Origin: an uncultured Actinomycetes bacterium
GTDB taxonomy: Bacteria; Actinomycetota; Thermoleophilia; UBA2241
Length of the DNA stretch: 64,000 bases
Assembly (NCBI GenBank): GCA_963767005.1
Contig: CAVYCN010000006.1
Coordinates: 64,001 to 128,000 of the forward strand
Direction of reading: 5' to 3'
The position numbers and the translations under genes are program-made. This document shows, in pieces, positions 18,310 to 24,383 of the stretch; the stretch's first letter is position 1, and each line of letters starts with the position of its first letter. The notes beneath the pieces are model-generated. The model saw only the letters and a program-made list of their open reading frames with translations. It was not told the DNA's origin and did not search any database.

Positions 18310-19371
18310 ATGGACCGGTCGAGGCGCAGGCGCACCCTCTCGACGGCGGCCGCCGTCGTGCTGGGCATCGCCGTGCTGTTCGGCACGGTCGCGATGTCGA
18401 GCGCGCGCGCCGACCAGGCGATCGTCGCCGTCCAGACGCCCAAGACCCTCGCCGGCCTCGAGACCGCGGCTCACGCCCAGCGCCTGCAGATGGCCCGGCT
18501 CGAGGCCCAGATGCAGGTCATCCACCGCGCGTACGAGGCGGCCGAGGCGCACCTGACCGCCATCGACGCCAGCCTGTCCCAGACGCGCCTCGAGTACTCC
18601 CAGACGCAGACCGACCTGCAGCAGGAGAGCGCCCTGCTCGGCGCCCGCCTGGCGGCCATGTACAAGATGGGGTCGTTCTCGTTCCTCGACGTGCTCGCCG
18701 GCTCGGCCAGCCTCGACCAGGTGCAGACCCAGATCACCTTCTACCGCAAGCTCACCGAGCAGGACGGCCGCACCGAGGCGACCGTGGCCGCCCTGAACGA
18801 CCAGGTCGGCCACCTCGCCGCCGCGCTCACCACGAAGCGCGCGGGCGCCGAGGCCGCCCAGCAGGCGGTCGACGCCCAGCGCCTCGCCATGTCCGACAAG
18901 ATCGCGCAGCGGCGCGCCATCCTCGAGAACCTCGTCGGTCAGATCGAGAAGATCATCGACCGCGGCCGGCCCAGCGGCGGCACCCTCTCCCCCGTGCCCC
19001 TGTCGAACAGCTACACGCCCATCACCTGGGCCAAGGCGCTGCTCGAGCAGCTCGGTATGCCGCTCACGAGCCAGAACGTGGCCGCGGTCACCGCCTGGGA
19101 GCTCGCCGAGGGCGGCCACTGGCACAACACCGCCCACTACAACCCGCTCGATACCACCATGCCCGAGCCTGGCGCCACCTCGATGAACTCAGTCGGGGTG
19201 AAGGCCTACGTGAGCTGGGCGCAGGGATTCGTGGCGACGATCGCCACTCTGCGCAACGGCTACTACGGGCAGATCCTCGCGGCGCTGCGGGCCGGCGACA
19301 ACGCCTACGCGGTGGCCGACGCGGTGGCCGCCTCGCCCTGGGGCACAGGCAACTTCAGCGGCCTGCTCTAG
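18310..19371 (+). CDS. Secreted coiled-coil (CwlO/PcsB-like) protein with putative lysozyme-like C-terminal domain
   Basis: Signal peptide, long coiled coil with LAAMYKMG..SFLDVL, C-terminal WELAEGG..HN..YNPLDTT...YVSWAQG domain. Confidence 0.75.
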   Translation: MDRSRRRRTLSTAAAVVLGIAVLFGTVAMSSARADQAIVAVQTPKTLAGLETAAHAQRLQMARLEAQMQVIHRAYEAAEAHLTAIDASLSQTRLEYSQTQTDLQQESALLGARLAAMYKMGSFSFLDVLAGSASLDQVQTQITFYRKLTEQDGRTEATVAALNDQVGHLAAALTTKRAGAEAAQQAVDAQRLAMSDKIAQRRAILENLVGQIEKIIDRGRPSGGTLSPVPLSNSYTPITWAKALLEQLGMPLTSQNVAAVTAWELAEGGHWHNTAHYNPLDTTMPEPGATSMNSVGVKAYVSWAQGFVATIATLRNGYYGQILAALRAGDNAYAVADAVAASPWGTGNFSGLL

Positions 19372-19463
19372 GGAACGGGCAAACGCGCAGGCGGGAGCTC
19401 GAAGGAACGAGCGAACGTCGGAGCGGGACTGCGGGGAACGAGCGAACGCCGGGGCGGGAGCTC
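19372..19463. repeat. Three imperfect ~29-bp direct repeats, 31-32 bp period
   Basis: GGAACGRGCRAACG-N5/6-GCGGGA(G)CT at 19372, 19404 and 19435. Confidence 0.85.
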
Positions 19464-19477
19464 CCCCGCGCGCGAGG

Positions 19478-19575
19478 CGCGAGTGTGGAGCTTTCTCTGG
19501 AGGACGACCTCCCCACAGCGGTTTACGACCCGAAGGCCTTCGTCCCGCACACGCCCGGCGTCCACTCGTCCGCTT
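19478..19575 (-). ncRNA. Candidate structured RNA mimicking 16S rRNA h16/h17/h18 junction (uS4 site)
   Basis: Minus strand 19550-19517 reads GTGCGGGACGAAGGCCTTCGGGTCGTAAACCGCT (16S h16). A GGAGG-TCGT-CCTCC mini-helix and AGAGAAAGC follow, and the ends can pair (CGAGTGGA with TCCACACTCG). Confidence 0.65.
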
Positions 19576-19581
19576 GATACC

Positions 19582-19613
19582 CGGCGCCCGGCGCTTTGCA
19601 GCGCCGGGCGCCG
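19582..19613. terminator. Perfect 14-bp GC hairpin downstream of the drr operon
   Basis: CGGCGCCCGGCGCT-TTGC-AGCGCCGGGCGCCG, with no clear U-tract. Confidence 0.65.
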
Positions 19614-19637
19614 TTCGCCGCGGAGATGCCCGCCCGC

Positions 19638-20414
19638 CTACGTGGTGACCACGATCGTCCTGCGGCGGTAGACGGCCACCGACAGAAGGTACGAGACGAC
19701 GAGGATGCCGAGGATCCACGCCAGCGCCGCCCAGACCCTGGGACCAGCCGTCCCGTCGACCAGCAGTGAACGCATCGTCTCGACCACCGGCGTCATCGGC
19801 TGGTGCTCGGCAAAGCCCCGCAGCCAGGGCCTCATGGAGCTCGTCGGCACGAACGCGGGGCTGATGAAGATGAACAGGAGCAGCACGTAGCTGAACGCGC
19901 CGGCCCCCTCCACCGTCTTGGCGAGCAGACCGAAGAAGATGGCCAGCCAGGTCGTCGCGAGCGTGAACAGCAGCAGAATCGCGGCAAAGACCAGCCACGC
20001 CACCACGCCGGCGTGTGACCGGAAGCCGATCGCGAACGCGACCGACAGGACCACCAGGGACGAGAAGAGGTTGGACAGGGTGGACGACGCCACCTGCCCT
20101 CCGAGGATCGACGACGGCGCGAGCGGCATCGTCCTGAAGCGATTGATGATGCCGCTCTGCACGTCCATGCTGAGGCGCACCGCGGCGTACGCAATGCCGC
20201 TCACGACCGTCATGACGACGATGCCCGGCACGATGAAGTCGACGTAACTGGCCGCGCCCGTCTGCCGTCCCACCGCCCCGCCCCACACGTAGACGAACAG
20301 CAGCATGAGTGCGATCGGCATCAGCAGCACGGTGATGATGGTGTCGGGACTGCGCGTGATATGGCGCAGGCTGCGCTTGGCCAGGGTCCAGGTGTCTGCG
20401 AGCGCGCGCGTCAT
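19638..20414 (-). CDS. ABC-2 type permease (DrrB-like)
   Basis: RSLRHITRSPD, YVDFIVPGI, GIINRFRTMP, AEHQPMTP; about 6 TM segments. Confidence 0.92.
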   Translation of the reverse strand: MTRALADTWTLAKRSLRHITRSPDTIITVLLMPIALMLLFVYVWGGAVGRQTGAASYVDFIVPGIVVMTVVSGIAYAAVRLSMDVQSGIINRFRTMPLAPSSILGGQVASSTLSNLFSSLVVLSVAFAIGFRSHAGVVAWLVFAAILLLFTLATTWLAIFFGLLAKTVEGAGAFSYVLLLFIFISPAFVPTSSMRPWLRGFAEHQPMTPVVETMRSLLVDGTAGPRVWAALAWILGILVVSYLLSVAVYRRRTIVVTT

Positions 20415-21373
20415 CGCTCCTCCCCCCCGTCGGCGCCGGTCATCTTGAGGAACACGTCGTCGAGTGTGGCCACCTTCTGGGAGAACTCGGTCGGCTCGAT
20501 CCGAGCGTCCTCGAGCGCCGCGAAGACGCGGGCGACCTGAGCCGCGGAGCCGTCCGTGGCGATCGTCAGCCGCGCGCCCTCGCGTCTGGCCGGCGCGTAG
20601 CCCTTGCCGAGCGCCGCACCGGCGGCGTCACGGGTCTCGTCGTCGGGGAACGTCAGCTCGATCAGCCCGCCCGGCACGAGCTTCTTCAGCTCGCCGGCCG
20701 TTCCGCGGGCGACGATCCCGCCCTGGTGCAGGACCGCGATGTCGTCGGCGAGCTCGTCGGCCTCGTCGAGATACTGTGTCGTCAGGAACACCGTGGTCCC
20801 GCCCGCGGCCAGCGTGCGGATCGTGCGCCACATCTCGTTGCGGGCCGCCGGGTCGAAGCCGCTGGTAGGCTCGTCCAGGAAGATGACGGCAGGACTGCCG
20901 ATCAGGCTCATGGCGATGTCGAGGCGCCGGCGCATGCCACCCGAGAACGTCGACACAGCGCGATCGGCCGCCTCCTCCAGGCCGAACCGCCGCAGCAGGT
21001 CGGCGGCCGTCCCGGCGGAGTCGGCGACGTGGCGCAGGTCACCGATCAGCAGCAGGTTCTCGCGGCCGGTCAGACGGTTGTCGACGGCGGCGAACTGCCC
21101 CGTCAGACTGATCTCGCCGCGCACCTTGCCCGGCCGGGCGGCGACGTCGTAGCCGGCCACCGTGGCCGTGCCGCCGTCGGCTTTGATGAGGGTCGTCAGG
21201 ATGTTGATCGTCGTCGTTTTGCCGGCGCCGTTGCTGCCCAGCAGGGCGAAGACCGTCCCTCTCTGCACGCTGAAGCTGAGGTCCTTCAGCACCGAGACGT
21301 TGTTGTACGACTTGCTGAGCGACCTGGCCTGGATGGCCGTCTCCGCGGCGAGCGAGGCGCTCAGGCTGCTCAT
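20411..21373 (-). CDS. ABC ATP-binding protein (DrrA-like)
   Basis: GSNGAGKT, FSGGMRRRLD, LDEPTSG, TLDDVFL tail. Confidence 0.92.
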   Translation of the reverse strand: MSSLSASLAAETAIQARSLSKSYNNVSVLKDLSFSVQRGTVFALLGSNGAGKTTTINILTTLIKADGGTATVAGYDVAARPGKVRGEISLTGQFAAVDNRLTGRENLLLIGDLRHVADSAGTAADLLRRFGLEEAADRAVSTFSGGMRRRLDIAMSLIGSPAVIFLDEPTSGFDPAARNEMWRTIRTLAAGGTTVFLTTQYLDEADELADDIAVLHQGGIVARGTAGELKKLVPGGLIELTFPDDETRDAAGAALGKGYAPARREGARLTIATDGSAAQVARVFAALEDARIEPTEFSQKVATLDDVFLKMTGADGGEER

Positions 21374-22143
21374 ACCGAGCGCTGGTAGGCGCGGAACGCG
21401 CGGGTGGCGATCCAGGTGCAGACCACGGAGAACACCAGCAGATACAGGGTATGGCTGAGCACGCCGCTCGACCCGGGGCCGTTCATGAGCGCCGTGCGGC
21501 CCGCCTGGATCGCCCAGTTGGCCGGGTTGTACCGGGCGATGTCCTGGATCCACTGGGGCGCCAGGTCCTGCTGCAGGAAGGCCGACGACAGGAAGATCAG
21601 CGGCAGCAGGAGCATGTTGACCGCCGCGATCACCGACTCCTCCTTGCGCAGCAGCAGGGCGACGCCGTTCGACAGCGAGGCGACGCCGATCGACAGCAGG
21701 GCCGAGACGACGATCAGCACGGCGACGCCGCCCCAGCCGCCGGCGAAGCGACCGCCCACGAGCAGCGCAAGGCCCACGATGATGGCGGTCTGGATGAGGA
21801 TGGTCAGCACCTGCGGCGTGACCCGGCCCAGCATGATCGCGCCGCGGCTCGTCGGCGCCACGAGGAACCGGTCCATGACGCCGCGGTCGAGATCGTCGAT
21901 CACGCCCATGCCGCTCCAGCCGCCGGCGAACATGGCGCTCATGACGACGATGCCCGGCGTGAGGAACGTGATGTAGGAGTGCGTGGCAAAGCCGGGGATC
22001 TCGACGACCTTCTTGAACAGGGCGCCGAAGAGCAGCAGGTAGATGATCGGTTGCGCCAGCGAGAGACCCACGAACCAGGGCTGGCGCAGGAAGTTGCGTA
22101 CCTGGCGCGCGGTCAGGTAGAGCGTGTGGCGCAATGCTGTCAT
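21370..22143 (-). CDS. ABC-2 type permease (DrrB-like)
   Basis: LAQPIIYLLLFG, YITFLTPGI, GVMDRFLVAP, RYNPANW. Confidence 0.92.
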   Translation of the reverse strand: MTALRHTLYLTARQVRNFLRQPWFVGLSLAQPIIYLLLFGALFKKVVEIPGFATHSYITFLTPGIVVMSAMFAGGWSGMGVIDDLDRGVMDRFLVAPTSRGAIMLGRVTPQVLTILIQTAIIVGLALLVGGRFAGGWGGVAVLIVVSALLSIGVASLSNGVALLLRKEESVIAAVNMLLLPLIFLSSAFLQQDLAPQWIQDIARYNPANWAIQAGRTALMNGPGSSGVLSHTLYLLVFSVVCTWIATRAFRAYQRSV

Positions 22144-23120
22144 CGGACCACCTCCGCGGCCGTGTCGGCGTCGGCGAAGCGCCGACCGGTGTACTTCAGA
22201 TAGACGTCGTCGAGCGAGGGCCGGGCGACCGTGACCGAGACCACCGGCACGCCCTGCGCCTCGAGGGCCTGGAGCATGACCGGCACCGCGCGAGCGCCGT
22301 CGTCGGCGCGGGCATGCACGATCCGGCCGTCCTCGATCGTCACGTCGCGGACGCTTTCGACGCGGCCCAGGGCCGCCGTCACGCGACCGTTGGCATCGGC
22401 GACGCCGAGCTCGACGTGCACGGCGTCGCCGCGCAGCTCGCTCTTCAGGGCGTCGGGCGTGCCCTCGGCCACGATGCGCCCCTGGTCGACGATCGCCACG
22501 TGACGCGCCAGGCGGTCGGCCTCCTCCAGGTAGTGCGTGGTGAGCAGGATCGTGAGACCCTCCTCGGCGGCGAGGCGCTCGATCTCGCGCCACATGTCGG
22601 CGCGGGCCGCGGGGTCGAGCCCGGTGGTGGGCTCGTCCAGGAACAGCACGGCGGGCCGGTGGATCAGGCCCATGGCCACGTCGAGCTTGCGCTGCATGCC
22701 GCCCGAGTAGGTACGGGTGACGCGCCGCGCGGCGTCGGCCAGGTCGAAGCGCTCGAGCATGGCGTCGACGCGCGCCTCGAGCTCGCGACCCGTCATGCCG
22801 TACAGGCGGCCCTGCAGGCGCAGGTTCTCGCGCCCGGTGGCCTGCACGTCGACGCCCGACTTCTGCGCCACGGAGCCGATCGCGCGACGCACGCGGTCGG
22901 GGTGGCGCAGCACGTCGATGCCGGCCACCTGAGCCGCGCCCTCGTCGGGCCGTGACAGCGTCGTCAGGATCCGCACCGTGGTCGACTTCCCCGCCCCGTT
23001 CGGGCCGACGAGGCCGAACACGCTGCCCGGCTGCGCCTCGAAGCTCACGCCGTCCAAGGCGCGCACCCCCTTGGGGTACGTCTTCACCAATCCTTTCGCT
23101 GCGATCGCGGTGTCACTCAT
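22140..23120 (-). CDS. ABC ATP-binding protein (DrrA-like)
   Basis: GPNGAGKS, YSGGMQRKLD, LDEPTTG, PSLDDVYLKYTG. Confidence 0.93.
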   Translation of the reverse strand: MSDTAIAAKGLVKTYPKGVRALDGVSFEAQPGSVFGLVGPNGAGKSTTVRILTTLSRPDEGAAQVAGIDVLRHPDRVRRAIGSVAQKSGVDVQATGRENLRLQGRLYGMTGRELEARVDAMLERFDLADAARRVTRTYSGGMQRKLDVAMGLIHRPAVLFLDEPTTGLDPAARADMWREIERLAAEEGLTILLTTHYLEEADRLARHVAIVDQGRIVAEGTPDALKSELRGDAVHVELGVADANGRVTAALGRVESVRDVTIEDGRIVHARADDGARAVPVMLQALEAQGVPVVSVTVARPSLDDVYLKYTGRRFADADTAAEVVR

Positions 23121-23194: not shown

Positions 23195-23255
23195 ACAGTT
23201 TAGTTCCAAGATATTTTGAGTGTCAAACTTTTCTTCTGTGGTATATTCTCTCCAT
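23195..23255. promoter_or_regulatory. AT-rich divergent promoter/operator between drrA and the MarR fusion
   Basis: Near-palindrome CAAGATATTTTG; extended -10 TGGTATATT on +; TTGACA on the minus strand at 23221-23226. Confidence 0.55.
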
Positions 23256-23279
23256 CTCTTCCCCGTTCTGGAGGCGACA

Positions 23280-24383
23280 TTGGCAAGCAAGGCGGACAAG
23301 CTGATCGACGAGGTCGGGGGGGAGCTCGGCGAGCTGCGCCGGGCGGCCGACAGCCTCGACGAGGCGGTCGCCACCAAGTTCGGGCTCAACCGCACCGACC
23401 TGCGCTGCCTGGGGATCATCTACCGCCGCGGCAGGGTGACGGCCGGCGAGCTCGCCGAGGAGAGCGGACTGTCGCCGGGCGCGATCACGACCGTGCTCGA
23501 CCGCATGGAGCGCGGCGGCTACGCGAACCGCGTGGCCGACCCCGCCGACCGCCGCCGCGTGCTCGTGACGTCGACCGCGGCGACCCGCGAGCTCGGCGCC
23601 CGCCTGTACGGCGAGGTCGAGCTCGCCGGACGCGCCCAGCTCGAGGGCGTCGCTCCCGACCACATCGAGGTGATCCGCGATTACCTGCGCGGCGTGCGGC
23701 TGTTCTACGAGGAGCTCGTGCGCAGCGTGCAGGGACCGGCGGACGCCGGCGGCGACGGCGCCGCCACCGTGACGGCGACCGACGCGAGCGCGCCGCTCGC
23801 CGGTGTCACTCTCGGCCGGCTGGTGATCGTCAAAGGCGCCGCGCGGGTGGACATCCGCGTCGACGACTCGCTGACCGATCTCTACCACGCGACCTTCGAC
23901 GCGCCCCCGCAGATCACGGTCGACGGCGGCACAGTCACGATCGGCCAGAAACGCCGTTTCCTGCCGTTCGACTGGCGGGTGGCCAGGACCGACCTCCGAC
24001 TCAACCCCGCCGTGCCCTGGGAGATCGCGCTCAAGGGCGGCATGTGGAAGCTGACGGCCGACCTCCGCGGCCTCGAGCTGCGCTCGCTCGACGTCGACGG
24101 CGGCGCGAGCGACGTCGAGATGTGGCTGCCGGCGCCGGCCGGCGTCGTGCCCGTGCGCATCTCCGGCGGTGCCAGCCACGTCCACCTCCACCGCCCCATG
24201 GGCTGCGCCCTGCGCGCCGACGTGAGCGGTGGCGCCAGTCAGATCGAGCTCGACAGCCGCGCGCAACACGCGATCGGCGGCCGCGGCCGCATCGAGACCC
24301 CGGACTTCGCCCAGGCGAGCGACGGTTACGAGCTGCGTTTCACCGGCGGTGCCAGCCACCTCGAGATCGACGTCGCCAGGTAG
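23280..24383 (+). CDS. MarR regulator fused to a C-terminal beta-solenoid (GGAS-repeat) domain
   Basis: MarR (LNRTDLRCL...TAGELA...DPADRRRV) followed by repeats GGASDV, GGASHV, GGASQI, GGASHL. TTG start with GGAGG RBS. Confidence 0.8.
   Translation: MASKADKLIDEVGGELGELRRAADSLDEAVATKFGLNRTDLRCLGIIYRRGRVTAGELAEESGLSPGAITTVLDRMERGGYANRVADPADRRRVLVTSTAATRELGARLYGEVELAGRAQLEGVAPDHIEVIRDYLRGVRLFYEELVRSVQGPADAGGDGAATVTATDASAPLAGVTLGRLVIVKGAARVDIRVDDSLTDLYHATFDAPPQITVDGGTVTIGQKRRFLPFDWRVARTDLRLNPAVPWEIALKGGMWKLTADLRGLELRSLDVDGGASDVEMWLPAPAGVVPVRISGGASHVHLHRPMGCALRADVSGGASQIELDSRAQHAIGGRGRIETPDFAQASDGYELRFTGGASHLEIDVAR

Follow-up and report, generated by a model that had tools for sequence, protein, structure and literature searches.

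The window (the whole stretch of 64,000 nucleotides that was analysed) carries a sequence resembling part of 16S rRNA (Table 1), flanked by a permease gene whose end is at 19638 and by a convergent one that ends at 19371. As the initial annotation had described, a helix-16-like stretch, GTGG, a 5-bp hairpin and an A-rich linker follow one another there on the minus strand, and its account of the surroundings was confirmed: no rpsD or rRNA gene lies downstream, the flanking genes are convergent and a strong hairpin lies upstream. Two tandem DrrAB-like ABC exporter pairs and a divergent MarR-domain gene occupy 19638-23120 on the minus strand and 23220-24383 on the plus strand; the MarR-domain gene has a long C-terminal extension, and the second exporter pair is found in some relatives only. 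The protein encoded at 18310-19371 has a likely signal peptide and a C-terminal domain that neither Pfam nor NCBIfam names, and presumably resembles motifs of actinophage tape-measure peptidoglycan hydrolases. It has matches in 87 of the 89 genomes of the host family, which consists of uncultured Actinomycetota, with or without the element, and often with paralogues.

Table 1. Features of the locus (positions within the window; helix names and base numbers refer to 16S rRNA)
Feature	Position	Strand	Basis
DrrB-like ABC-2 permease, upstream neighbour, outside the element	19638..20414	-	PF01061
AAC motif and 13-bp inverted repeat	19582..19615	-	self-match
Predicted -10 promoter box with GGGTA core, of SigB-like or SigA-like type	19574..19582	-	GGGTA in 18/18 members
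Predicted small RNA, 128 nt, four-way junction modelled on the 16S uS4 site	19440..19567	-	fold z, consensus fold, covariation
Closing stem P1, 5' strand; first base is the predicted transcription start	19551..19567	-	
Last three bases of the P1 5' strand, corresponding to 16S 401-403 (3' strand of helix 4)	within 19551..19567	-	
G404-U405, then the whole of helix 16 (406-436) including internal loop and GUAAA	19518..19550	-	
U437, shortened helix 17, A-rich linker	19492..19517	-	U437 in 18/18 members
Helix-18-like hairpin with base stem, 3-nt bulge and upper stem, the 530 loop having been replaced	19460..19491	-	
Closing stem P1, 3' strand	19440..19456	-	covarying pairs
Convergent neighbour, weak PcsB-like coiled coil; marks the locus	18310..19371	+	PF24568 below cut-off

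A structured element derived from 16S rRNA

The boundaries first given for the element had to be revised. The 98-base stretch 19478-19575 marked out by the initial annotation folds no better than its shuffles (z +0.84), whereas the RNA running from 19567 to 19440 folds at z -3.29, with none of 200 shuffles as good, and two homologues reach z about -5. The closing stem originally suggested is also wrong, because the bases taken for its 3' strand belong to the 5' arm of the helix-18-like hairpin, a part of the structure that had been missed. In the predicted fold of the window copy, the closing stem P1 pairs 19567-19551 with 19456-19440. The consensus fold obtained with RNAalifold from an unguided alignment of nine homologues is a four-way junction formed by the 17-bp P1, helix 16, a short helix 17 and the base of helix 18. 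Every member of the family, 124-148 nt in length, fits this junction.

The fold is supported by covariation. In the MAFFT alignment of nine sequences, eight pairs show two-sided changes, a result equalled by 2 of 500 shuffles. In an alignment of 17 sequences, which leans towards the model to which it was fitted and omits one member truncated by a contig end (L133), there are 12 such pairs and 95.8% of cells are paired, against 44-55% in slid controls; none of 500 shuffles did as well, shuffle statistics of this kind ignoring kinship. The two-sided changes affect 4 of the 17 P1 pairs (7 more have one-sided changes), 3 of the 7 pairs of helix 17 and 4 of the 5 base pairs at the foot of helix 18. 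Since G-U variants fix the direction, the RNA can be assigned to the minus strand. The conserved, structured element derived from 16S rRNA is thus real, and the original idea of a selected mimic of the uS4 junction, as opposed to a random scrap of rRNA, is supported by the homologues, the covariation and the pattern of kept parts. An imperfect direct repeat (19371-19400 and 19434-19463, 83% over 30 bases) was also noticed, in which the 3' side of helix 18 and the P1 3' strand recur 3' of the element; it was not seen in relatives.

By BLAST, a 46-base stretch of the element matches the 16S genes of relatives at up to 85% identity (E 7e-8); no assembled 16S gene was found in the window genome itself. 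The homologue in G021 scores 65.6 bits against the Rfam model of bacterial 16S rRNA (RF00177, cut-off 50), with helix 17 shortened. No Rfam family was identified for the window copy: between 17000 and 22000 of the window, neither the 16S model nor the S4 leaders gave a match at E<=5, and four homologous loci gave no S4-leader match at E<=1.

Positions such as 401-403, 404-406 and 437 are given here in what we take to be the E. coli 16S numbering. In these terms, G404, G406 and U437 are present in all 18 members and U405 in 17. The GUAA of helix 16 likewise occurs in 18 of 18, a figure that is partly forced, eight members having been found through a pattern that covers 424-436; the helix-16 tetraloop varies in five. 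Mean pairwise identity is 0.94 in helix 16 and 0.55-0.62 in the flanks. Helix 17 is shortened in every member, and a separate helix 3 is missing, a single closing stem taking the place of helices 3 and 4. A full helix 18 with a version of the 530 loop is found only in G021 and G081 (loci L008 and L052, respectively), the loop having been replaced in the other 16. The same two members have A509/A510 of the 505-510 bulge, which are missing in the remaining 16, including the window copy. Even in these two sequences several bases of the 530 loop are changed; a hairpin is predicted there, with one two-sided change between the two, and it would hinder the pseudoknot.

The helix-16 stem differs from the present 16S rRNA of the host genus at four paired positions (two swapped pairs) and resembles the 16S rRNA of other families of the class. 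The copy is therefore old or foreign and not a recent duplicate. The flanks of the element are not rRNA and do not continue colinearly into the flanking 16S sequence, and the closing stem is new and covarying. In most members the P1 3' strand starts with GCG, a triplet that host 16S rRNA has both in the 3' strand of helix 3 and in the 5' strand of helix 4. The simplest origin that we infer from these sequences is a linear 16S piece, comprising about positions 401-550, that closed on itself; the element may instead have arisen by circular permutation. As a separate observation, the base stem of helix 18 in the 16S rRNA of the host genus and some of its kin (L165-L167, L062-L065) carries compensatory changes relative to the rest of the family.

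Distribution, promoter-like box and inheritance

Altogether, 18 distinct members outside rRNA genes were identified, ten of them in the 89 family genomes and eight at further metagenome loci. When the intergenic stretch was compared with 61 genomes by BLAST, eight other genomes showed long matches; among the short matches, the 11 inspected were all 16S genes. A covariance model built from nine sequences found full-length members in 10 of the 89 family genomes, namely in 8 of the 12 genomes of the host genus and in G021 and G081, which belong to two other genera. The other matches of the model did not exceed 31 bits, and 11 of these, when inspected, all proved to be 16S. A pattern scan of metagenomes returned 11 loci, ten elements (two of them duplicates of genome members) and one 16S gene. 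One named record that has the element is labelled Thermoleophilia.

Wider searches returned members of the same family only. Of the 26 matches of the model in 151 genomes of the class, 2 were elements and 24 were 16S genes; patterns gave 13 in 401 class genomes (8 elements and 5 16S genes) and two in 401 genomes of the phylum (the window copy and one unrelated stretch). A pattern for the helix-18 variant found 42 loci in a collection of 185,579 species, including two elements identical in sequence to those of L008 and L052 and counted once. In viral contigs, two patterns gave one unrelated match and none, respectively, and so no member. Outside the family, then, no member was found in the 151 and 401 class genomes, the 401 phylum genomes, the all-species collection or the viral contigs, in searches that depend on exact patterns or rate a small number of candidates in each genome and could miss diverged or independent mimics. 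Within the 3.4-Mb genome the helix-16 loop motif occurs once at up to one mismatch. We therefore rejected a repeat or mobile element, the element being single-copy; a 21/22 match on contig C10 lies inside a coding frame.

All 18 members have a GGGTA core upstream of P1, and the distance from the hexamer to P1 is 6-7 nt in 17 of them (8 in L133, judged by eye), although the spacer itself varies (identity 0.52). The variants of the box, GGGTAT, GGGTAC and GGGTAG, are all reported among promoters of the Streptomyces SigB family (PMC8346170), and a gene of the SigB/F/G family is present in the window genome. The final T of TANNNT, as in many tRNA promoters of this genome, is found in 8 of the 18 boxes, and a SigB-type GNNT at 12-14 nt in 5 of 17 members. 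A sigma-70 consensus scan found nothing, and among the genome-wide GGGTAT sites listed no clear -35 pattern was visible by eye, with crude gene calls. The -35 region fits neither the SigA nor the SigB type well, and neither promoter class is fully matched. Among 12 runs, no RNA run was listed as containing the sequence, which speaks neither for nor against expression. The motif AAC stands 33 nt before the box in 14 members, and the 13-bp inverted repeat that accompanies it in the window is, from its sequence, likely the terminator of the upstream operon, overlapping the promoter.

The surroundings of the element differ between members. All eight carriers in the host genus have it between convergent genes, while G021, G081 and three metagenome loci have different upstream neighbours. 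In G081 a divergent arsenite methyltransferase gene lies upstream and a convergent gene downstream, so that in this genome a UTR is excluded. About 300 nt downstream of the element in G021 lies a hemerythrin-like gene on the same strand. In G007 a frame at L078:15202-16314, about 6.4 kb from the element, is presumably of the IS110 transposase type, judging by its start. The GGGTA box in all members and the divergent upstream gene in G081 indicate that the element is probably a free-standing small RNA with its own predicted promoter and not the 3' UTR of the drr operon.

The supported groups of the element tree match those of the tree of the neighbouring protein, and the non-carriers G001, G006 and G008 nest among carriers. 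Together these observations mean that the element has been passed on along with its locus and that it disappeared on more than one occasion. It is missing from the assembled locus in all three of these close relatives, and in G008 the upstream flank is joined directly to the P1 3' strand, which is a deletion scar. No degenerate copy above 21 bits was detected at the locus in non-carriers (28 loci). In G009, 50 bases at L199:4181-4230 match the 3' third of the element at 76%, about 270 bases from a gene for the C-terminal domain of the neighbour; this may be a remnant or chance.

Candidate functions

What the element keeps of the 16S rRNA, and what it drops, points to ribosomal protein uS4. S4 binding is reported to need bases 404, 405, 406 and 437 together with helix 16, the tip of helix 17 and the 530 loop being dispensable (PMC2665224), and it is mainly because the essential parts are kept and the dispensable ones dropped that we name uS4 as the ligand. 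On these grounds we lean, by a small degree, towards the element being a uS4-binding decoy or buffer RNA. Against this count the missing helix 3, the loss of A509/A510 in 16 of 18 members, the patchy presence (10 of 89 genomes), the loss from G001, G006 and G008, the partly forced invariance of 424-436, the four paired positions at which the helix-16 stem departs from the host 16S rRNA, and the imperfect fit of the promoter. Deletion of helix 3 is reported to cost about 360-fold in binding, and the A509C/A510C change to abolish S4 binding (PMC2665224), while S4 is also described as binding an intermediate whose helix 3 has flipped away (PMC4604426). In structural terms, the long rigid P1 may compensate for the missing helix.

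Reported roles of uS4 include nucleation of 30S assembly, repression of the alpha operon in E. coli and rRNA antitermination (PMC10931766). Given these roles, its capture would damp ribosome production or store the protein. In the mechanism that we envisage, the 3' strand of helix 4 in the ancestral piece of about positions 401-550 would have paired with the 3' strand of helix 3, or with an equivalent new strand, and the stem so closed would then have been lengthened into P1. An RNA of 125-150 nt would be transcribed from the GGGTA box, where a stress sigma factor of the SigB type may act, and this RNA would bind free uS4 outside the ribosome. The lowered level of free uS4 would slow 30S nucleation under stress, or uS4 would be held for later; the decoy itself would offer no working decoding surface. 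In its fullest form, which we put forward tentatively, this reading makes the 16S piece a stress-induced sRNA gene whose product catches uS4 as a brake on ribosomes acting in trans or as a uS4 store, the 530 loop having been rewritten and then discarded. With equal reserve, such an RNA might be regarded as a sponge for a ribosomal protein and as a natural minimal four-helix uS4 site, able to bind the protein and unable to seed a subunit.

The partner of a free-standing 16S mimic might also be another reader of helices 16-17-18: an enzyme with an S4 domain (RsuA, for instance), a factor for assembly or hibernation, or a nuclease that attacks rRNA and is lured away by the mimic. The missing helix 3 and A509/A510, which predict weak uS4 binding, speak for such a partner, RsuA is described as preferring helix 18 without the pseudoknot and as possibly sharing the S4 site (PMC7356742), and the patchy presence would suit a conditional protective role. 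However, the surroundings of U516, the RsuA target, are lost in 16 of 18 members, and the best-kept bases are the mapped S4 contacts. Nor did the ten regions compared, in which family libraries were applied to some of the neighbours, show a toxin, nuclease or RNA-modifying gene as a constant neighbour, and the two patterns found no viral member. We consider a partner other than uS4 rather unlikely.

Improbable, in our judgement, is decay: a 16S fragment of old date, which may formerly have been a leader or an RNA that bound uS4, would now serve mainly as a stable hairpin terminator or stabiliser without any protein partner. The stepwise loss of helix-18 features from G021 and G081 to the host genus, the deletion remnant in G008 and the absence of the element from most of the family are all in keeping with it, as is the position between convergent genes in all eight carriers of the genus. 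Yet the unpaired bases of the helix-16 loop, none of which a terminator needs, lie in the best conserved part of the element (0.94 against 0.55-0.62 in the flanks). Moreover, helix 16 is nearly unchanged between G000 and G081, whose neighbouring proteins have diverged to 50% identity, and the promoter-like box stands at a fixed distance in all members.

The initial annotation had offered three origins, of which the free-standing decoy sRNA is now the best supported; the other two, a 3' UTR element of the drr operon and a leader orphaned by loss of rpsD, found no support. Together with a 5' leader of some downstream gene, these make up the possibility of a uS4-responsive element acting in cis, which we regard as very improbable. 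It is true that in most members from the genus the element directly follows the ABC permease gene, and that in G021 a same-strand gene lies downstream. However, G021 and G081 carry the element beside other genes, in G081 with the divergent and convergent arrangement described above, and the hemerythrin-like gene of G021 has its own promoter-like sequence and exists in G001 and G006 without the element. Not one of the 18 members precedes a recognised ribosomal protein gene.

The genomic position of rpsD also speaks against an orphaned leader. The gene scores above cut-off in 57 of 61 genomes, inside the alpha operon; in the loci read it lies mid-operon, separated from the preceding rpsK by 10-20 bases, and rpsM follows rpmJ at a distance of 1-8 bases. 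The window genome, listed as 100% complete, yielded no rpsD, rpsK, 16S or tmRNA. Contig C7 (end at 155120) stops about 20 bases before rpoA, which accounts for the missing rpsD and rpsK; loss of rpsD was accordingly rejected in favour of an assembly gap. A cis-acting S4 leader with GUAAA, sought from secY to rpsK in eight relatives, was not found in any intergenic stretch. Two further observations concern these genomes: in the host genus (L221, L222, L226-L228) the infA-rpmJ spacer measures 71-77 bases, has shared sequence and a hairpin, and is possibly a ribosomal protein leader, and ARAGORN called tRNA-Pyl and tRNA-Sec at G000:C3:242986 and C4:389248.

Finally, an assembly chimera with a 16S read, conceivable given that the window genome has no assembled 16S and that 16S contigs pile up on the helix-16 stretch, has practically no chance and is refuted by the homologues: assemblies made independently have the element at this locus too, diverged in its own way, its sequence differs from the 16S of the host genus, and in a relative a contig from run X5 connects the element with the gene next to it, although among contigs from six DNA runs none spans the window's own element.

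Significance and comparison with known systems

A literature search, to which most subscription papers were closed, found no description of such a free-standing RNA, and the rRNA mimics compared here act, as far as the sources describe them, in cis on the mRNA of the protein itself. If the decoy reading is true, a free-standing gene made from an rRNA subdomain would represent a new control of ribosome assembly through removal of a nucleating protein. It would also be a clear case of rRNA reused as a regulator, whose intermediate stages can still be seen, from the full 530 loop through the rewritten loop and the plain hairpin to the deletion. With the element, a long-studied question becomes testable, namely whether uS4 can be bound tightly when both helix 3 and the helix-18 pseudoknot are absent. 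Its reach is limited by a narrow distribution, uncultured hosts, dispensability and a function that is putative.

The closest relative is the five-helix junction of the 16S rRNA itself (helices 3, 4, 16, 17 and 18), studied as the engineered minimal 5WJ RNA (PMC2665224). Both have a complete helix 16 with 404-406 and 437, and the element's helix 17 and 530 loop are trimmed in a way similar to the laboratory deletions reported to be tolerated (Bellur and Woodson 2009, PMC2665224). In contrast to 5WJ RNA, the element is natural, measures 124-148 nt, has four helices, with a single closing stem standing for helices 3 and 4, possesses its own promoter-like box and has lost A509/A510 in 16 of 18 members. 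The S4 leaders of Firmicutes and Fusobacteriales also copy the helix-16 GUAA, and their proposed or demonstrated ligand is uS4 (PMC7247131). As described there, however, such leaders form the 5' UTR of rpsD or of the alpha operon and copy few bases, whereas the element copies three helices; it is far more 16S-like than they are and does not have the 5' UTR position that defines them.

In its candidate mode of action, the element is instead comparable to stand-alone RNAs that do not derive from rRNA and have no sequence relation to it. CsrB/RsmY and 6S RNA imitate the natural nucleic-acid target of a protein, CsrA and RNA polymerase, respectively. By analogy with these RNAs, the element may sequester uS4.
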